A DNA stretch of 56,923 bases from Patescibacteria group bacterium (GCA_022709795.1 JAKLID010000001.1:1-56923), one strand, 5' to 3'. Positions 15,254 through 54,665 are shown, counted from the stretch's first letter. Numbers and translations are program-made. Notes: a model not told the origin generated them from the sequence alone.

Positions 15254-15445
15254 AATATAGAAACTCAAAACTCAAAATTTAAAACTCAAAAGTATTGATA
15301 AGCATAAACAAAAGAGACCGGGATGGGTCACTTTTATTATATCAGGAAAAGGGTTTTGGGCAAAAGAGAGGTGGGGTGGTAATTAATTTAATGAGTGTCG
15401 GAGTCCCTGGCGGAGACTCCGACGGGGCGGAAAAATTCAATTTCA

Positions 15446-33105: not shown

Positions 33106-33273
33106 AAAAATTAACAAATTGGTAGCCAATTCGTTGCTATTTAGAGTATCAAAAAAGAGCGATTTAGTAAAGCTCGGACAATTTGATTTTGAGAGAAGAA
33201 AGTGATAAGATAGGAATAACAATAAAGCAAAAAATTTAGAAATCAGATATCAGAAATTAGAAACTAGAAACAT

Positions 33274-36237
33274 ATGGAAAAATATAATCCACAAGCAATA
33301 GAGCCAAAGTGGCAAAAGGTTTGGGATGAGCAGGGTGTATTCGCGGCCGAAGAGGATAAGGCTAAGAAGAAATTTTTTGGTTTGATTGAATTTCCTTACC
33401 CTTCTGGCGACGGGTTGCACACGGGTCATTTGCGTTCCAATACCGCCATGGATATTATTTGTCGCAAAAGAAGGATGCAGGGTTATAACGTTTTATATCC
33501 GATCGGCTTTGATGCCTTTGGCTTGCCCACAGAAAATTACGCCATTAAGAAAAAAATAAAACCCCAAGAAGCGACAGCCAAAAATATTGCTACTTTTACC
33601 AAACAACTTAAAGAAGCGGGTTTTTCTTTTGATTGGAGCCGGTCATTTTCTACAACTGATGAAGATTATTATAAATGGACACAGTGGATTTTTGTGCAGA
33701 TGTTTAAACGCGGCTTGGCGGAAAAGAAAAAAGAAACGATTAATTGGTGCACTTCATGCAAAATTGGTTTGGCCAATGAAGAGGTGGTGAATGGTGTGTG
33801 CGAACGTTGTGGCGGCGAAGTGGTGAAAAAAATAAAAGAGCAGTGGGTTTTGAAAATTACCAAGTATGCCGATCGGCTGATCAAAGACTTGGACACAGTG
33901 GATTATTTGGAAAGAATAAAAACACAACAGGTGAATTGGATCGGTAAGTCTGTTGGGGCGGAGATACGATTTAAGATTTATGATTTAAGATTTAAGAATG
34001 AACCCCTTGATGAATTGGTGGTGTTTACAACCAGACCCGACACATTGTTTGGGGCGACGTTTATGGTGGTGGCGCCGGAACATCAGCTTATCAGCAATTT
34101 CCAAGATACAATTTCCAATTTCCAAGAAGTGAAAAATTATATAGAAGAGGCAAAGAAGAAATCGGATTTAGAAAGAACGGATTTGAATAAAGAGAAAACT
34201 GGTGTGGAGATAAAAGGCATTAAAGCGATTAATCCGGTCAATGGCCAAGAGATACCGATTTTTGTGGCAGATTATGTGATGATGGGTTATGGCACAGGCG
34301 CGATTATGGCCGTGCCAGCGCATGATGAAAGAGACTATGAGTTTGCGAAGAAGTATAATATTTCAATCAAAGAAGTGGTTGCACCATTGATTAAAAAAGA
34401 AACTAAGGATGATAAACCAACAGAAAAAAGAGATGTGGTATGCGCCATTGTTAAAGATGTCAAAAAAAATCAAATTTTATGTTTGAATTGGAAGAAGACG
34501 GGTTGGAAAGCTTTTCCAATGGGAGGAACTGACGGAGAAAATTTAATTGATGCTGCAAGAAGGGAGGTGAGGGAAGAAACTGGTTATAAAAATATAAGAT
34601 TTGTCAAAAAAATAGGCGAACCTTTTTATCAAAATTTTTGGCGACCGCACAAAGATTCAAATGTCTTTGGTAAATTTGAAACTTTATTTTTTGAATTGGA
34701 AGATTATGAAAAAGATGAAGTTAATGAAAAAGAAAAAGAGCAGCATGAGGCTGTGTGGATTGATGAAGACAAAGTTAAAGAGTTTATTAATGTTAGCGGC
34801 CCGGAATTAATATGGCAAAGATATAGTGGGTTGGATGAAAAGTGTTTTTTAGGAGAAGGGATAGCAATTAATTCTGGTGAGTTTAACGGATTATCCACAA
34901 CAGAATTTAAAGAAAAAATAGTTAATTGGTTGAAAGAGACTGTTTTGGGTAAAAAACAAATTCAATATAAACTTCATGACTGGATTTTTTCCAGACAAAG
35001 ATATTGGGGAGAGCCCATACCGCTAATTTTTTGTGCTAATTGCAAAAAATTAGCGGAAAATCCGAAATCCGAAATCCGAAATCCGAAATTAAATGAAGGA
35101 GAGATTTTAAATCCAGGTTGGTATGTCGAGGAAAATTTGCCCGTGGTTTTGCCAGACATAGATGATTATTTACCAACTGACGAGGGCGATTCGCCATTGG
35201 CTAAAAAAGAAGATTGGGTAAAAACAAAATGCCCGGTGTGTGGTGAGGAAGCGCGAAGAGAAACAGATGTCATGCCGAATTGGGCGGGGTCAAACTGGTA
35301 TTTTATTCGCTATACTGATCCGAAAAATGATCAGATGATGGTTGACCCAGCCAAAGCCAAGTATTGGTTGCCGGTGGATTGGTATAATGGCGGCATGGAA
35401 CATACAACTTTACATCTTTTGTATTCTAGATTTGTGTGGAAATTTTTGTATGACATTGGCGCGGTGCCAAAAGAATGCGGAGTAGAACCATATGCCAAAC
35501 GCACAGCCCACGGCATGATTTTGGGTGAAGGCGGAGTCAAGATGAGTAAATCCAAAGGCAATGTGATTAACCCAGATGAATATGTCAAAAAATATGGGGC
35601 AGACACGCTTCGTGTTTATGAAATGTTTATGGGGCCGTTTGATCAGCCAATTGCTTGGGAGGATAAGAGCGTCAATGGGGTGTATAGATTTTTGAATAGA
35701 ATATGGTTATTGCAGGACAAGCTCCAAGCTCCAAGCTCCAAGCTCCAAATAAATTCCAAATCACAAATCCCAAATCCAAAACTAGTTACATTACTACATC
35801 AAACAATTAAGAAGGTGGGGGAAGATATCGAAGAGATGAAATTTAATACAGCCGTGGCGCAAATGATGATTTTGTTAAATGAATTAGAAAAGCAGGAAGA
35901 AATTTCTGCAACCCATTATTCATTATTTATTATTCTATTATCCCCTTTTGCGCCACACTTGGCAGAGGAATTGTGGCAGAAACTTGGACACAAAGAATCT
36001 ATTCAAAAAGAAAATTGGCCAGAGTATGATGTGAATTTGATTAAGGCAGAAGAATTTGAACTAGTGGTGCAAATCAACGGTAAGGTACGGGAGAAAATTT
36101 TAGTGCCAGCAGAAATTGGCGAAGCGGAGGTAAAGGAGTTGACCATGAAAAATGAAAAGGTTTTGAAGTGGCTAAACGGACAAGAGCCAAAGAAAATTAT
36201 TTATGTCAAAGGCAAGTTGGTAAGTATGGTGATATAA
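33274..36237 (+). CDS. leuS: Leucyl-tRNA synthetase with an inserted Nudix domain and several in-frame low-complexity insertions
   Basis: Class I HIGH motif (PYPSGDGLHTGHLR), CP1 editing motifs TTRPDTLFGATFMVVAPEH and GTGAIMAVPAHDERDYEFAKKY, RQRYWGEPIP, and KMSKS (VKMSKSKGN). Confidence 0.95.
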   Translation: MEKYNPQAIEPKWQKVWDEQGVFAAEEDKAKKKFFGLIEFPYPSGDGLHTGHLRSNTAMDIICRKRRMQGYNVLYPIGFDAFGLPTENYAIKKKIKPQEATAKNIATFTKQLKEAGFSFDWSRSFSTTDEDYYKWTQWIFVQMFKRGLAEKKKETINWCTSCKIGLANEEVVNGVCERCGGEVVKKIKEQWVLKITKYADRLIKDLDTVDYLERIKTQQVNWIGKSVGAEIRFKIYDLRFKNEPLDELVVFTTRPDTLFGATFMVVAPEHQLISNFQDTISNFQEVKNYIEEAKKKSDLERTDLNKEKTGVEIKGIKAINPVNGQEIPIFVADYVMMGYGTGAIMAVPAHDERDYEFAKKYNISIKEVVAPLIKKETKDDKPTEKRDVVCAIVKDVKKNQILCLNWKKTGWKAFPMGGTDGENLIDAARREVREETGYKNIRFVKKIGEPFYQNFWRPHKDSNVFGKFETLFFELEDYEKDEVNEKEKEQHEAVWIDEDKVKEFINVSGPELIWQRYSGLDEKCFLGEGIAINSGEFNGLSTTEFKEKIVNWLKETVLGKKQIQYKLHDWIFSRQRYWGEPIPLIFCANCKKLAENPKSEIRNPKLNEGEILNPGWYVEENLPVVLPDIDDYLPTDEGDSPLAKKEDWVKTKCPVCGEEARRETDVMPNWAGSNWYFIRYTDPKNDQMMVDPAKAKYWLPVDWYNGGMEHTTLHLLYSRFVWKFLYDIGAVPKECGVEPYAKRTAHGMILGEGGVKMSKSKGNVINPDEYVKKYGADTLRVYEMFMGPFDQPIAWEDKSVNGVYRFLNRIWLLQDKLQAPSSKLQINSKSQIPNPKLVTLLHQTIKKVGEDIEEMKFNTAVAQMMILLNELEKQEEISATHYSLFIILLSPFAPHLAEELWQKLGHKESIQKENWPEYDVNLIKAEEFELVVQINGKVREKILVPAEIGEAEVKELTMKNEKVLKWLNGQEPKKIIYVKGKLVSMVI
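34425..34800 (+). other. Nudix hydrolase domain inserted within LeuRS, after the CP1 editing domain
   Basis: Nudix box GGTDGENLIDAARREVREETGY (Gx5Ex7REVxEExG). It is preceded by RDVVCAIVKD..NQILCLNWKK and followed by GKFETLFFELED...HEAVWIDEDKVKEFI. Canonical LeuRS sequence resumes at GIAINSGEFNGLS. Confidence 0.65.
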
Positions 36238-36524: not shown

Positions 36525-37790
36525 ATGAAACCATTTAATAATGCCTTGGAACAATTAAAGAAAGCGGCAGAGCTGGTAGAATTAAATAAAAATATTTGGG
36601 AAAGAATAAAAAAGCCGGACAATGTTTTGCAGGTGTCTTTGCCGGTCAAGCTGGATAATGGAGAATGGGAAGTATTTGAGGGATACCGAGTACAATATAA
36701 TAACAGCCGCGGGCCGTACAAGGGCGGGATCAGATTTCACCCCAAGACTGATTTGAATGAAGTCAAGGCCTTGGCTTTTTGGATGACAATCAAATGTGCA
36801 GTGGTGGGTATTCCTTATGGCGGAGCCAAAGGCGGAATCACCGTGGATCCTAAAAAATTATCAGTGGGAGAATTGGAAAGATTGACGCGGGCTTTCACTC
36901 AAAAATTGGTTGGTTTTATTGGGTCGGAAAAAGATATTCCAGCGCCGGACGTGAATACCAATTCGCAGATCATGGCGTGGATGGCAGATGAATATTCAAA
37001 AATAAAGGGCTATAATGTGCCGGGTGTAGTGACGGGCAAGCCATTGGAATTTGGCGGCTCACTCGGCAGAAATGAGGCCACTGGGCTGGGTGGATTTTTT
37101 GTTTTTGAGCAACTGGCTAAAAGATTGAAATTAAATTCCAAGAAGACAACAGTGGCGATCCAGGGATTTGGCAATGTCGGTTGTAATCTGGCTGTGTTTT
37201 TGCACCGGGCTGGTTATAAAATAGTGGCAGTATCTGATTCGCAGGGAGGAATTTTGAATAAAAACGGGGAAGAGATGGATCCAGAGGAGATAATGAAAGC
37301 CAAAAAACAAAAAGGACAAATCGATGGTTGCTATTGTCGGGGGACAGTTTGTGATTGTCTGAATTTTGCCAAAATAGATAATGAAAAATTGTTGCAATTG
37401 CCAGTAGATGTTTTGGTGCCAGCGGCTTTGGAGGGGGCGATTCATGAGAAGAACGCAGGTAAAGTAAAGGCAAAAATAATTTTAGAAATGGCTAATGGTG
37501 GCGTGACACCTGGAGCGGAAGAGAAATTAAATAAGAAAGGGATAACGGTGGTGCCGGATGTTTTGGCGAATGCTGGTGGGGTGGTAGTGTCGTATTTTGA
37601 GTGGGTGCAAAATTTACAAAATTATTATTGGACACTGGAGGAGGTAAACGAGAAGCTGAAAAAAATAATGGATGAAGCGTTTGAGGAAGTCTGGCAGAAA
37701 AAGGAAAAATATCAGACAAATTTGCGGATGGGGGCGTTTGCTTTGGCCTTGGAGAGAATAGAGAGGGCGATGAGGGTGAGAGGGATGTAG
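36525..37790 (+). CDS. gdhA: Glutamate dehydrogenase (Glu/Leu/Phe/Val dehydrogenase family)
   Basis: GPYKGGIRFHP, catalytic Lys box PYGGAKGGI, and Rossmann motif VAIQGFGNVG. The ATG at 36525 is preferred over the TTG at 36498. Confidence 0.9.
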   Translation: MKPFNNALEQLKKAAELVELNKNIWERIKKPDNVLQVSLPVKLDNGEWEVFEGYRVQYNNSRGPYKGGIRFHPKTDLNEVKALAFWMTIKCAVVGIPYGGAKGGITVDPKKLSVGELERLTRAFTQKLVGFIGSEKDIPAPDVNTNSQIMAWMADEYSKIKGYNVPGVVTGKPLEFGGSLGRNEATGLGGFFVFEQLAKRLKLNSKKTTVAIQGFGNVGCNLAVFLHRAGYKIVAVSDSQGGILNKNGEEMDPEEIMKAKKQKGQIDGCYCRGTVCDCLNFAKIDNEKLLQLPVDVLVPAALEGAIHEKNAGKVKAKIILEMANGGVTPGAEEKLNKKGITVVPDVLANAGGVVVSYFEWVQNLQNYYWTLEEVNEKLKKIMDEAFEEVWQKKEKYQTNLRMGAFALALERIERAMRVRGM

Positions 37791-37881
37791 GGTTGTAGGT
37801 ACGTAGGGAGGTAGGTGGGTAGTTAAGTAGGTGTGTAGGGAAGTAGGATTTATGATTTAAGAAATTAAGATATTTTAATTT

Positions 37882-38574: not shown

Positions 38575-38627
38575 AAATGATACGCGAATAGTTTTGCGAA
38601 TATATGCGAATGCTTTTGCGAATAAAG

Positions 38628-42628: not shown

Positions 42629-44491
42629 ATGCTGAAAAAAATAATTGAAGCTGGCGAACTTGCTGGCAGTAAAATAATTACTAAATGGCTATTAGGAGTA
42701 GCCGTTTTTTTGATCGTGGCGATTGTTTTTGGCGGAGCAGTGGTGATTTATAATTATTATTACAACGGGCGGGTATATCCGGCAGTCAGGTTTGACGAGC
42801 TTGATTTGGGTGGCAAAACAAAAGAACAGGCGCGGAGCCTGATTCAGGCTAAAATTGACCAGTTGCTGGAGAAAGGCGTAGCTTTTAATTATAATGAACA
42901 AAGGGAAATAATAAAGCCAATAATTTATGGGTCAGACAGTGAGGGCCTGGCCTATGAGCTATGGAATTATGATTTGGACAAGATGGTAGATAATATATAC
43001 GCGGTGGGGAGGGGTGACGGAGGCTGGCTGGAAAGAATAGAGGGATTGTTTGGCCGGGTCAGAGTAGAGCCAGAATATAGAATAAAAGAAAAGGAAGTGG
43101 GTGAAATATTGAAAGAAAAATTTGGCCAACTGGAAGAACCAGGCGAAGAGGCTGAATTGGTTTTTGCAGCTGAGGGACCAATAGTAAGTGAAGAAAAAAT
43201 AGGCAGGGTTTTTGATTATGAACAAGCGTTGGCTGGCTTGAAAGAAAATATCTTCAAATTGGACAACCGCGAGATAAATTTGGTAATGGTGAATGATTTA
43301 CCCCAAGTAACCAAGGAGAAAGTAGAAAATTTATTAACCCTGGTAGAACCAGCAGTGGATTTGGCACCGATCACTTTGAAATTTAAAGAAGAAGCAGAGG
43401 GAAAAATTTTAACCGACAAGAAGTGGACAATAAAAAAGAGTGAGTGGCAGGCATGGTTGAAAGCCAAAGATAATGGTCAGGGCGAGGCCTATATCGGGAT
43501 TGATGAAACTAAAGCTAGTGAAAGACTAAAAGAGATTGCCGAGGGTATTGATCAGCCAGCCAAAGACGCCAGGTTTACCATGCAGGACGGGCGGGTGGTG
43601 GAATTCCAGTCATCGCAGGACGGGCGGGTGGTCAACATCGAGGAGACCATTCAAACAATAGAAATAAAAGTTTTGAGAGAAAAAAACAGCGAGGTCGATC
43701 TGATGATGACGATTGATAAATCCCAATTGACCAATGAGGGAGTGAATGATCTAGGGATTAAAGAATTGGTGGGCCAAGGGGAATCAAATTTTGCTGGTTC
43801 GCCCAAAAACAGAATACACAATATCGGAGTGGGAGCGGCGGCCTTGAATGGACTTTTGATCAAGCCGGGGGAAGAATTTTCTATAAATAAAGCCTTGGGA
43901 ACAATTGACGGTAGTACTGGATACAAGCAGGAGATGGTGATCAAGGGTGATAGGACGATTCCCGAGTATGGCGGCGGTTTGTGCCAAATCGGGACAACAT
44001 TATTCCGGTTGGCAATCAACACTGGTTTGCCAATCACGGAAAGGCGCAATCATTCTTACCGGGTCAGCTATTATGAACCAGCTGGCACAGACGCGACGAT
44101 CTATGGTCCATGGCCGGATTTGAAATTTATCAATGACACAGGTAATTATTTATTATTACAAACTAGAGTAGAAGGGACAAAAGCATATTTTGATTTTTGG
44201 GGGACAAGAGATGGGCGCGAGGTGGCGACGACGACGCCGACAATTTATAATATTGTGTCAGCCGGGGAAACAAAAATAATAGAAACGGAAGACCTGAAGC
44301 CGGGAGAAAAGAAATGCACGGAGCGAGCGCACAATGGCGCAGACGCGTATTTCAAGCGGACAATCATTTGGCCGGAAGGATTTAGTAAGGAAAAAGTGGA
44401 AGAAACTTTCCGGTCGCATTATGTACCGTGGCAGGCGGTGTGTCTCATTGGGAAAGTGGCGACGAGTACTAGTGAGGTGATAGGTGAGTAG
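42629..44491 (+). CDS. VanW-family protein with N-terminal membrane anchor
   Basis: TM helix LLGVAVFLIVAIVFGGAVVIY. C-terminal VanW core IPEYGGGLCQIGTTLFRLAINTGLPITERRNHSYRVSYY. Confidence 0.85.
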   Translation: MLKKIIEAGELAGSKIITKWLLGVAVFLIVAIVFGGAVVIYNYYYNGRVYPAVRFDELDLGGKTKEQARSLIQAKIDQLLEKGVAFNYNEQREIIKPIIYGSDSEGLAYELWNYDLDKMVDNIYAVGRGDGGWLERIEGLFGRVRVEPEYRIKEKEVGEILKEKFGQLEEPGEEAELVFAAEGPIVSEEKIGRVFDYEQALAGLKENIFKLDNREINLVMVNDLPQVTKEKVENLLTLVEPAVDLAPITLKFKEEAEGKILTDKKWTIKKSEWQAWLKAKDNGQGEAYIGIDETKASERLKEIAEGIDQPAKDARFTMQDGRVVEFQSSQDGRVVNIEETIQTIEIKVLREKNSEVDLMMTIDKSQLTNEGVNDLGIKELVGQGESNFAGSPKNRIHNIGVGAAALNGLLIKPGEEFSINKALGTIDGSTGYKQEMVIKGDRTIPEYGGGLCQIGTTLFRLAINTGLPITERRNHSYRVSYYEPAGTDATIYGPWPDLKFINDTGNYLLLQTRVEGTKAYFDFWGTRDGREVATTTPTIYNIVSAGETKIIETEDLKPGEKKCTERAHNGADAYFKRTIIWPEGFSKEKVEETFRSHYVPWQAVCLIGKVATSTSEVIGE

Positions 44492-44591
44492 GTAGGTAGG
44501 GTGGTAGGCTGGTAGGCGAGTAGGGGGGGTAGAATTTAAGAATTAAGATTTATGATTTAGGAATAGGAAAATTATTGGGATATTAAATATT

Positions 44592-49909: not shown

Positions 49910-50488
49910 ATGCTTAGTTTAAAATATTTACCACACAAAGAACCAGATGAGAAAGTGATTTTTGCCTTGCACCGGCATGGTTTTATTTTGTTTGCGATTG
50001 CGCTGGGATTTTTGTTGGCGGCACTTTTGCCATTAGGCGCTTATTTTTTGATTGAAGCAGAACTCTTGCCACTGTTTGGGAGTGATATTCTGACTATTTT
50101 TTTGCGATTGCTGATTTTTGTTTTTTATTTGTTTTGGTGGATGTTGTTTTATTACGCCTTCCTTGATTATTATCTAGATATCTGGATCGTGACAAACTAT
50201 CGGGTGATCGGCGTGGAACAAAAGGGATTATTCAATAGAAAGGTGTCGGAATATAAATTATTTAGGATACAAGACGTGATGATGGAACAAAAAGGAATAT
50301 TTTCTACGGTAGTTGATTTTGGGACAGTACACGTGCAAACGGCCGGGGAGCAGGAAACAGTTGATTTTCAACAAGTGCCCAACCCACATTATGTAGCTAG
50401 AGAGTTGATTCGCTTGATAGAATTTAATAAACAAAGATTGGCCAAGGAAGTCAATAAAAAAGATGGCAATGAAGATAAAACTATTTGA
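49910..50488 (+). CDS. Membrane protein with bacterial PH (YdbS/YdbT-like) domain
   Basis: Two N-terminal TM helices followed by DIWIVTNYRVIGVEQKGLFNRKVSEYKLFRIQDV...FGTVHVQTAG. Confidence 0.65.
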   Translation: MLSLKYLPHKEPDEKVIFALHRHGFILFAIALGFLLAALLPLGAYFLIEAELLPLFGSDILTIFLRLLIFVFYLFWWMLFYYAFLDYYLDIWIVTNYRVIGVEQKGLFNRKVSEYKLFRIQDVMMEQKGIFSTVVDFGTVHVQTAGEQETVDFQQVPNPHYVARELIRLIEFNKQRLAKEVNKKDGNEDKTI

Positions 50489-51497
50489 TTATAATTTACC
50501 AAAGGAGCTGATCGCCCAAAGACAGATAAAACCGCGAGACTATTCGCGGTTGTTGGTTGTTGAGAGAAAGGGGGGTGTTTTAAAGCATGATCATTTTTTT
50601 AATCTGGAAAAATATTTGGAGCCGGGAGATGTACTGGTTTTTAATAATTCAAAAGTATTTCCGGCGAGGATCAGATTTGATGAAGGAAGAGGGGAAATAT
50701 TTTTGTTGAAAGAATTGGGAGGAGGGAGATGGGAAGTATTGGGGAAGAAATTAGAAACTAGAAATCAGATATCAGAAATCAGATATCAGAAATTGGAGAA
50801 TGGATTAGAGCATAAGATAATGAAAAGATTAGAGAATGGAAATTGGGTGGTGAGATTTAATTTAAAGGGGAAGAAGTTTTACGATTGGTTGGAGAAGTAT
50901 GGGGAGACGCCGTTGCCACCGTACATTAAAACAAAAGATTCGGCGCAAATGAGAAAAGATTATCAGACAATTTATGCGAAAGAAAGAGGCTCGGTAGCGG
51001 CGCCGACGGCTGGACTACATTTCACTAAAAAACTTTTGACTACACTGAAGAAGAAAGGAATTAAAATGGAATTTGTGACATTACACGTGGGACAAGGAAC
51101 TTTTCAGCCAGTTAAGACGGAGCGGATTGAAGAACATAAATTGCATGAGGAATACGCGGTGTTGGACAAAGCGACAGCAGAGAGATTGAATAAGTATAAG
51201 AAAGAAGGGCGAAGAATTATCGCGGTGGGGACGACAAGCTGTCGAACACTGGAAGCGTTGGCGGAAAAAAATAGACGCTTAAAAGCGGCGAGCAAGTGGG
51301 TGAATATCTTTATTTATCCGGGGTATAAGTTTAAATTTGTGGATGGGTTGATAACAAATTTTCATTTGCCCAAGTCATCGCTTTTGATGTTGGTATCGGC
51401 GTTGGCGGGGAGGAAATTTATGATGGAGGTATATAAAAAAGCAGTGGAGAAAAAATATCGGTTTTATAGTTTTGGGGATGGGATGTTAATCAAGTAA
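50463..51497 (+). CDS. queA: S-adenosylmethionine:tRNA ribosyltransferase-isomerase QueA, with an in-frame low-complexity insertion
   Basis: LFDYNLPKELIAQRQIKPRDYSRLLVV, GSVAAPTAGLHFT, IIAVGTTSCRTLE, ITNFHLPKSSLLMLVSA, YRFYSFGDGMLI. Confidence 0.93.
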   Translation: MAMKIKLFDYNLPKELIAQRQIKPRDYSRLLVVERKGGVLKHDHFFNLEKYLEPGDVLVFNNSKVFPARIRFDEGRGEIFLLKELGGGRWEVLGKKLETRNQISEIRYQKLENGLEHKIMKRLENGNWVVRFNLKGKKFYDWLEKYGETPLPPYIKTKDSAQMRKDYQTIYAKERGSVAAPTAGLHFTKKLLTTLKKKGIKMEFVTLHVGQGTFQPVKTERIEEHKLHEEYAVLDKATAERLNKYKKEGRRIIAVGTTSCRTLEALAEKNRRLKAASKWVNIFIYPGYKFKFVDGLITNFHLPKSSLLMLVSALAGRKFMMEVYKKAVEKKYRFYSFGDGMLIK

Positions 51498-53784: not shown

Positions 53785-54005
53785 GCTTTGCGCGGAATTT
53801 CCAATTTCCAATTTCCAATTTCTCCGCCAATTTTCGATTGGGTAGCTTCTCATATCGGGAAGGCGGATCACCCTTGGGGTGACAAATAATTTTCAATTTT
53901 CAATTTTCAATTTTCATTCTGCAATGGCGGAATTGTAATTTGAGCTTTGGAGTTTGGAATTTGTTTGGAACTTGGGATTTGTATCTTGGGATTTCCGCGC
54001 AGAGC
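53785..54005 (+). other. 23S intervening sequence 1 (extended hairpin in the helix 9/10 region)
   Basis: GCTTTGCGCGGAATTTCCAATTTCCAATTTCCAATTTC pairs with GGAACTTGGGATTTGTATCTTGGGATTTCCGCGCAGAGC. About 220 nt occupy the place of a short helix in E. coli. Confidence 0.7.
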
Positions 54006-54523: not shown

Positions 54524-54665
54524 GAATTTCCAATTTCCAAATCCCAATTTCCAAATAATTTCCAATTTCCAAATCTCAATTTTCATCTCGCAAACGCGGG
54601 ATTGGAGTTTGAGTATTGGAGCTTGAGATTTGTTTGGAACTTGGAAATTGTATTTTGGAGCTTCC
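54524..54665 (+). other. 23S intervening sequence 2 (extended hairpin in the helix 25 region)
   Basis: The 5' arm is CGGAATTTCCAATTTCCAAATCCCAATTTCCAAATAATTTCCAATTTCCAAATCTC. The complementary 3' arm is GAGATTTGTTTGGAACTTGGAAATTGTATTTTGGAGCTTCCG. It starts with the same words as IVS1. Confidence 0.7.

Follow-up and report, generated by a model that had tools for sequence, protein, structure and literature searches.

The 56,923-nucleotide stretch of DNA analysed here (the window; GCA_022709795.1 JAKLID010000001.1:1-56923) comes from a Patescibacteria group bacterium and carries, on its plus strand, the leucyl-tRNA synthetase (LeuRS) gene leuS (33274-36237). The 987-residue product was assigned from the open reading frame (ORF) list, its translation, its Pfam domains (tRNA-synt_1, tRNA-synt_1_2 and Anticodon_1) and its match to the Thermus thermophilus LeuRS structure 1H3N (E 1.8e-209). 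Within the gene lie four tracts of head-to-tail 7-nt units, each with 3.6-4.6 copies when scored at period 7 by Tandem Repeats Finder (TRF), two of them perfect. All four were found where the original prediction had placed them, in frame and free of stop codons, and translation reads through. Also, an AGAAATC-type leader array (33237-33271, plus strand; TRF and sequence reading) ends 2 nt 5' of the leuS ATG. The leuS tracts proved to be translated members of a genome-wide and clade-wide family of heptad-periodic DNA.

The genome around the window (G000) measures 0.93 Mb in 99 contigs and is 93.5% complete, and its nearest LeuRS relatives carry the labels Candidatus Kuenenbacteria and other Patescibacteria. 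leuS was compared with database homologues and with 20 relatives, a non-exhaustive sample ranging from the same genus (which includes G002 and G003) up to the same class. Tracts were placed on the protein structure by alignment with T. thermophilus 1H3N and with an AlphaFold (AF2) model, whose mean predicted local distance difference test score (pLDDT) was 88.6. Genes were called crudely, as ORFs of 120 residues or more, period-7 arrays were scored with TRF and order-3 Markov simulation provided the chance control.

Four tracts in the leucyl-tRNA synthetase gene

Tract 1 (33968-33997, plus strand; TRF unit GATTTAA, 4.3 copies, 91% matches; peptide RFKIYDLRFKN) contributes about six extra residues at the tip of a beta-hairpin at the entry of the CP1 editing domain, where 1H3N has a 6-residue gap and the AF2 model has flanking strands at residues 225-237 and 246-252. 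One of its units reads TAT; a TAA at that point would be an in-frame stop. Across the relatives the same region spans 17-243 residues and is filled by other heptads, by GC-rich hairpins or by a whole extra domain. The tract itself, TAT included, is common to G021/P0009 only, and the same-genus G002 and G003 are without it. Copies are dispersed in the genome, the best being 31 nt at 97% identity on contig C23.

Tract 3 (35058-35089, plus strand; TRF unit AAATCCG, 4.6 copies, 100% matches; peptide NPKSEIRNPKL) lies directly after the second zinc knuckle's first CxxC, in a predicted loop (AF2 pLDDT 76-78). The 22-residue segment at this site occurs in G000, G010, P0003 and P0033 and is missing from T. 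thermophilus 1H3N and from G002 and G003. In the four lineages that have it, position, flanks and length are identical, as confirmed in DNA, and each lineage holds four perfect copies of a unit of its own: AATCCGA in G000, AATTCGA in P0003, AATACGA in P0033 and ATTTCCA in G010. Single-base differences present in every copy at this site imply concerted change with the copy number held fixed. The tract-3 unit occurs nowhere else in the genome and tract 3 is therefore not built from a shared word.

Tract 4 (35718-35781, plus strand) is a composite of CAAGCTC in 4.4 copies (35718-35748, 100% matches), ATAAAT and four NNCAAAT heptads (LQAPSSKLQINSKSQIPNPK), the last part being scored by TRF as AAATCCC in 4.4 copies (35751-35781, 83%). 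The heptad hairpin family of this genome is represented here by a single, entire 5' arm, with 89% identity over 57 nt to the hairpin arm at C67:11537-11593 and 90-92% to other arms; no complementary arm was found near it. The CAAGCTC unit begins inside conserved D-K-L codons (gaCAAGCTC). In the AF2 model the tract falls in the linker before the anticodon-binding domain, as a coil between helices 797-816 and 835-853 in which residues 821-830 score below pLDDT 50, and the linker is disordered. The region of residues 800-850 holds 51 residues here against an array-free baseline of about 40. G003 has the same tract minus 21 nt, and at this site G002 has a different heptad run that is common to G014 and G020.

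In alignment with relatives, tracts 1, 3 and 4 are lineage-specific occupants of variable loops, with fast turnover at the same sites, and the surface-loop tolerance originally proposed is borne out by their positions: the tip of a beta-hairpin for tract 1, a loop for tract 3 and a disordered linker for tract 4. They can also be described as insertions, as the original prediction had it, whereas tract 2 (34095-34125, plus strand; TRF unit CAATTTC, 4.4 copies, 75% matches; peptide SNFQDTISNFQ) cannot: it is a length-neutral overwrite of a structured segment. The segment measures 39 residues in 19 of the 20 relatives (38 in G029, 64 in G024), forms a helix-loop-helix in the editing domain at pLDDT 91-94 (AF2) and keeps the pattern I-x-N-aromatic-x-E-V among relatives. 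The units of tract 2 read AATTTCC AAGATAC AATTTCC AATTTCC; units at this site start at the conserved Asn-aromatic codons, with which the final one overlaps in every case. Distinct heptamers occupy the segment in G002 (AATTATG), G004 (AAGGCAA), G018 (AATTTCG), G021 (AATCACA, three copies), G028 (AATCTCA) and also G020.

Thirty nucleotides of tract 2 are 100% identical to a dispersed hairpin/spacer arm of the same genome (C9:3864-3893), and tracts 1, 2 and 4 all have near-identical counterparts dispersed in the genome. The tract-2 word is dispersed in G011, G002 and G014 as well, and the leuS of G011 carries it too: around tract 2, about 60 of 66 nt are common to G000 and G011, whose overall identity is 55%.

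Other variation in the gene was noted in passing. leuS appears mosaic when G000 is set beside G002, G003, G010, G011 and G021, with near-identical short patches common to distant relatives. A NUDIX hydrolase domain lies within the CP1 editing domain (residues 386-501, window 34429-34776; Pfam E 1.9e-12) and is common to many Patescibacteria LeuRS homologues; others of these homologues have Ser_hydrolase/alpha-beta hydrolase, Ham1p-like (ITPase) or ASCH domains at the tract-bearing variable sites.

A heptad family in spacers, rRNA and essential genes

The genome contains 292 period-7 arrays of at least three copies against 8 in simulated sequence, and 104 period-8 arrays against 3; the excess is modest at periods 6 and 9, and there is little or none at periods 5, 10 and 11. 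The longest perfect period-7 run measures 34 nt (18 nt in the simulation) and the modal array length is 30-31 nt. When redundancy is removed 278 heptamer arrays remain, of which 180 lie outside long ORFs, 63 in ORFs and 35 at ORF edges; the non-coding part, about 19% of the genome, is thus some 12 times denser in arrays than the ORFs. This census speaks strongly against the idea that the leuS tracts are ordinary conserved linkers or assembly artefacts. The conserved length and residue pattern of the tract-2 segment are what would be expected of a linker, but tracts 1, 3 and 4 vary in sequence and length within the genus, and the idea is highly improbable. An origin in misassembly is in itself unlikely, because the arrays are at most 64 nt long, shorter than sequencing reads, and independent assemblies show the same architecture at the same site.

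Many essential genes hold arrays inside their ORFs. Hosts confirmed by Pfam are GluRS, CysRS, ValRS, AlaRS, GyrB, TrmD, TsaD and RsmH, and hosts identified by sequence reading are IleRS, SecA, a UvrD-like helicase, a MiaB-like enzyme, a PolA fragment and QueA. In the window, the QueA-like ORF (50463-51497, recognised from motifs by eye) carries in frame an AGAAATC-type array found by TRF (50746-50793, plus strand; KKLETRNQISEIRYQKL), and the AGAAATC unit is also in frame in GyrB, GluRS and TrmD. The A/C-rich strand is nearly always the sense strand and encodes hydrophilic peptides such as EIRNQKS, NFQFPIS and KAKGKRQ. Solo arrays are sense-oriented 61 to 19 in ORFs and 75 to 50 between co-directional genes. 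Turnover resembling that of leuS was seen in other hosts: TrmD has 24 extra nucleotides in G000 only, with a different array at the same site in G004, and the three TsaD sites all differ among six genomes, G000 and G003 being 21 nt apart at site 1. In G000, G002 and G003 the composite module described below is present in CysRS. A separate CysRS candidate, at 5360-5397 on contig C22 (TRF, 67% matches), was rejected as an array insertion, being conserved coding sequence of constant length in relatives. The ValRS gene (G000 C34:21961-25338) combines an in-frame heptamer array with an inserted His_Phos_1 histidine-phosphatase domain (residues 591-738, E 1.3e-35).

The family was recognised by its architecture. 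Some 75 unit types in the genome follow one CAA-anchored heptad architecture, and the composite module consists of about four NNNNCAA heptads (AATTTCC, AAGCTCC, AAGATAC, AAGAAAC, AAATCCC), often continued by ATAAAT and three or four NNCAAAT heptads. At a few dozen dispersed loci this module is a 5' arm, followed by a loop and a complementary TTG-type arm; 18 of the composite loci fold into long hairpins at -25 kcal/mol or better. Folding both strands of the 18 intergenic hairpins showed most to be equally stable, with 3 agreeing and 1 disagreeing with gene direction. Complementary pairs of modules thus build the long intergenic hairpins and both insertions in the 23S rRNA, and many essential genes contain, in frame, a lone A/C-rich arm or a pure array. 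The original proposal of one sequence family in spacers, structural RNA and essential ORFs stands for this heptad architecture, which is found in all three; the diversity of units leaves no single family of words. The 9-mer CAAATAAAT on its own was discarded as a family marker, with 88 matches against 100 simulated and hence no enrichment; the composite was chosen instead because only about half of the CAAATAAAT matches fall in structured arms.

Intervening sequences of 23S rRNA are extended stem-loops, some with a gene for a PF05635 (S23p/IVS) protein, that are excised by RNase III. Both insertions of the window are extended stem-loops of this kind that take the place of a helix tip inside 23S rRNA, made of heptad words common to the leuS tracts, and the genome carries 11 PF05635 genes. 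The first (53796-53994, plus strand; Rfam large-subunit rRNA match and TRF, boundaries approximate) has AATTTCC/AATTTTC and TTTGGAA-type heptad arms. The second (54525-54663, plus strand; sequence and RNA fold) is a long heptad hairpin with an AATTTCC-type 5' arm, folding at -58 kcal/mol (z -7.1, none of 200 shuffles as good). AATTTCCAATTTCC opens both, at 53796 and 54525, as had been noticed. The companion claim, that AAGCTCCAA is the complement of their 3' arms, holds for the second insertion, whose 3' arm contains TTGGAGCTT twice, and only approximately for the first. The leuS tracts do not belong to this class: unlike the insertions they have no stem and no partner arm and are translated, and RNase III excision is irrelevant to them.

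The tract-1 word AGATTTATGATTTAAG likewise recurs in spacers as predicted, with one mismatch each at 37846-37861 (GGATTTATGATTTAAG) and 44546-44561 (AGATTTATGATTTAGG), both on the plus strand and 3' of a G-rich period-8 array; four matches were found in the window against 0.12 expected. Of the other window tracts that had been listed as similar, those at 15261, 28011, 33237 and 51492 have period 7, and those at 38580 (period 11/22) and 49475 (period 8/18) do not.

Twelve- to 20-kb samples of 19 relatives showed many with 3-11 heptamer arrays and others with 0-1. Three tandem copies of AATTTCC occur in 29 of 301 genomes of the class, the reversed control giving one match; across these 29 genomes the run is mostly of exactly four copies, and none of the matches listed has five. 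A small vocabulary of units is common to different families. Module size therefore seems fixed, at four units and five CAA anchors, and 13% of the arrays have their end no more than 12 nt from a start codon, compared with 3.9% for random positions, a background drawn from the whole genome and not from spacers alone. These features raise the prospect that the arrays are functional cis-elements kept by selection even within genes. Candidate roles would be periodic sites for an abundant protein, such as a PF05635 four-helix bundle, or signals for mRNA stability or translation. We rate both the general proposal and these roles as having little chance of being right: the unit sequence changes freely at site 3, arrays are gained and lost within one genus, spacers are 12 times richer in them than ORFs, and tolerance of the peptide accounts for the sense-strand bias.

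Further structured elements accompany the family. G-rich period-8 arrays (GTAGGNNN, 6-8 copies) at 37781-37847 and 44475-44524 sit in two spacers preceding genes, directly 5' of the shared word AAGATTTATGATTTA; spacers of this sort form a second structured class. The 7- and 8-base arrays also enclose a GC-rich hairpin (CCTGCC...GGCAGG, about 21 nt), which has about ten copies in the arrays of G000 (among them window 28897 and C5:1844, C14:3924, C16:1216, C39:6313, C41:4467 and C78:12895). Where this hairpin sits in the LeuRS, CysRS and TsaD arrays of relatives, the gain is exactly 21 nt in frame, a length that keeps both reading frame and heptad phase. Nostoc has small dispersed repeats, reportedly very small mobile elements (21-27 nt) that sit inside other repeats; the hairpin is nested in the same manner, but sequence and host clade are unrelated and its mobility is putative. 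On the minus strand of C5:1-400 in G000, a LepA/EF4-like frame (…LNLIDTPGHVDF…) starts right after a heptad arm; as it lacks the N-terminal P-loop region and has a stop codon just upstream, it would be a truncated or split gene.

Proposed slippage and short-patch copying, and the alternatives

Several known systems resemble the family in part. Heptanucleotide simple sequence repeats (SSRs) are over-represented in bacteria, as in the STRR (short tandemly repeated repetitive) sequences of Calothrix and Nostoc, the GGGAATC repeats of Xanthomonas and the TAACTGA repeats of Beggiatoaceae, Cyanobacteria and Bacteroidetes (PMC4692102, PMC4679880). They are essentially intergenic or located at protein ends (PMC4692102, PMC4679880), and a passage of PMC4692102 that cites a 2007 survey ascribes their excess to polymerase slippage. 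The arrays described here are likewise 7-base units in tandem, two to six at a time, much more frequent than chance predicts and for the most part between genes, with some inverted pairs, some members just 5' of start codons, a patchy spread and a mechanism that is not established. They differ in having dozens of unit types in one CAA-anchored frame and a composite module that builds hairpin arms and rRNA insertions. Unlike the SSRs they are also common within core essential enzymes and not just at protein ends, and they show length-neutral overwriting and swaps of unit at a fixed site. Copy-number differences amount to 21 nt between same-genus species (leuS tract 4 and TsaD), and copy number appears to be capped near four.

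The palindromic elements of Rickettsia (RPEs) and others are fused in frame to genes, as palindromes of about 100-150 bp that were inserted whole (PMC10969869, PMC3184786). As with RPEs, a family dispersed in spacers is here translated in unrelated housekeeping genes at positions compatible with the fold; unlike RPEs, the ORF copies are 30-64 nt long, one-armed and tandem-periodic, and their units change in concert. They are single A/C-rich arms with no partner, and so are not palindromes of the RPE type. No paper describing the heptad-repeat phenomenon for bacteria of the Candidate Phyla Radiation (CPR) was found in the literature.

Slipped-strand mispairing is a source of cryptic simplicity and of concerted evolution in tandem repeats. 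The arrays fit this pattern in that their units are identical while lineages diverge and in that they spread from local seeds; they depart from the general case in affecting essential coding sequence under a frame constraint, in the cap near four units and in the strict 7-base register. With confidence that is about evenly balanced, we propose that the dispersed heptad family is kept up by slippage in 7-base register together with short-patch conversion, filtered by reading frame and loop tolerance. Slippage would make arrays and resize them, and transient misalignment, or short-patch copying from a neighbouring unit or from a look-alike array elsewhere, would yield length-neutral overwriting; replication errors in 7-base register would in this way generate the family and keep its units uniform. 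Because the lineage apparently lacks MutS and MutL, misaligned intermediates would go uncorrected. MutS_V and MutL were not found in G000 by domain search (93.5% complete genome), MutS_V was not found in 29 of the 31 genomes searched, and it gave a significant score in only 1 of 30 relatives.

Selection would then remove most outcomes. In genes the net change would have to be a multiple of three, and a tract that survives would create no stop, would have its hydrophilic A/C-rich strand as the sense strand, and would either lie at a tolerant loop site or encode a new peptide mimicking the old, as in tract 2. The slippage and copying part of this proposal is favoured because of the local seeds, the concerted single-base variants, the length-neutral overwriting and the frame-preserving steps; the selective filter is favoured because of the sense-strand bias, the TAT of tract 1 and the positions of tracts 1, 3 and 4. 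The copies in ORFs are most likely tolerated by-products and not functional parts of LeuRS.

Several observations weigh against slippage and conversion as a full account. The proposal is inferred from sequence comparison, no event having been seen directly. Copy number looks capped, with perfect runs ending at 34 nt and AATTTCC runs stopping mostly at four copies, which is unlike an ordinary microsatellite, and plain slippage gives no reason for a favoured register of seven. The complexity of the 64-nt composite of tract 4 makes an origin on the spot untenable; it must be a copy of sequence from another place, for which a mobile element would also account. Loss of mismatch repair was rejected as sole cause, because array-poor relatives are also without MutS. 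Finally, the short patches common to distant lineages (tract 2 in G000 and G011, tract 1 in G000 and G021) could reflect inter-lineage recombination.

If short leuS patches had been imported in that manner, tracts common to distant relatives and absent from close ones would be explained, namely the patch around tract 2 common to the otherwise divergent G000 and G011, tract 1 in G000 and G021 and not in the same-genus species, and the site-3 segment in G000, G010, P0003 and P0033 and again not in G002 or G003. Recombination leaves unexplained, however, the arrays of the whole genome, the fact that tract 2 matches a spacer arm of its own genome exactly and the concerted single-base variants, and is at best a contributing process; as the explanation of the tracts it has only a slim chance.

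A more substantial competitor, which we nevertheless consider unlikely, sees the tracts as what is left of a hairpin mobile element, non-autonomous and of the type of an intervening sequence or of a MITE (miniature inverted-repeat transposable element). The route, which we hold to be equally improbable, would be insertion of a whole hairpin or of a single-stranded copy of an arm, with only the A/C-rich arm surviving in genes. Tract 4, a full 5' arm with 89-92% identity to dispersed hairpin arms, is what such an element would leave, the tract-4 composite occurs also in CysRS and TsaD of relatives, the heptad family recurs in many genera of the class, and the 11 PF05635 genes would be in keeping with an intervening-sequence element. 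The ORF copies, however, have no 3' arm or remnant of one, tract 2 left the length unchanged, the unit of tract 3 is unique, and single-base variants present in all four copies at site 3 are unexpected under repeated insertion. When filled and unfilled orthologous sites were compared, the leuS tracts showed neither inverted termini nor duplicated flanks, and ORF copies gave no sign of a terminal signal or of a target duplication. Among the mechanisms raised originally, slippage and conversion fit best, and a hairpin mobile element is possible for tract 4 only.

Enzymes that could drive such mobility were considered. The genome (93.5% complete) gave no RVT_1 match, and reverse-transcriptase rewriting, or a replacement resembling that of diversity-generating retroelements, was accordingly rejected. 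Four small ORFs (C56:694-1221, C18:5832-6338, C33:1502-1687 on the minus strand and C21:386-1021) have weak Y1/IS200-type transposase (Y1_Tnp) matches, three over the Pfam cut-off, with HxH and YxHxNP-like motifs. Those on C56, C18 and C33 have short GC-rich hairpins on both sides, in the manner of repetitive extragenic palindromes (REP) and REP-associated tyrosine transposases (RAYT). RAYT-driven mobility was also rejected, since three of the four are flanked by these hairpins instead of heptad arrays.

It might instead be that the module of four units and five anchors is a written unit, installed and re-templated at fixed length in look-alike sites by dedicated machinery, in which the abundant PF05635 (Avd-like) four-helix-bundle proteins might be involved. 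This is a long shot, although it would account for units being swapped at equal length at site 3, for the overwrite of tract 2 with an exact 30-nt match and for the cap at four copies in 29 genomes. The favoured register of seven, the cap near four units and the entry of a 64-nt arm are what keep mobile-element and dedicated-machinery readings in contention beside slippage and short-patch conversion.

Fast-evolving repeats in a small genome

CPR bacteria have among the smallest genomes known, yet the essential enzymes of this tiny genome hold fast-evolving repeat DNA. The present analysis contributes an assignment of each leuS tract in turn, the DNA-confirmed series of units at site 3 in four lineages and an overwrite in tract 2 that left length unchanged and matches a spacer arm exactly. 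To these it adds the cap at four copies seen in 29 genomes and the searches for mismatch-repair genes. With four different perfect arrays, site 3 offers a clean natural case for concerted evolution under frame constraint.

In practice, such tracts mislead marker-protein alignments and phylogenies and inflate apparent protein novelty in metagenomes. They can also mimic horizontal transfer, because distant lineages come to hold the same tract. If slippage in 7-base register and conversion do operate without mismatch repair, they would give these bacteria a steady supply of new surface loops, and structured segments, such as that of tract 2, would be open to rewriting as well.

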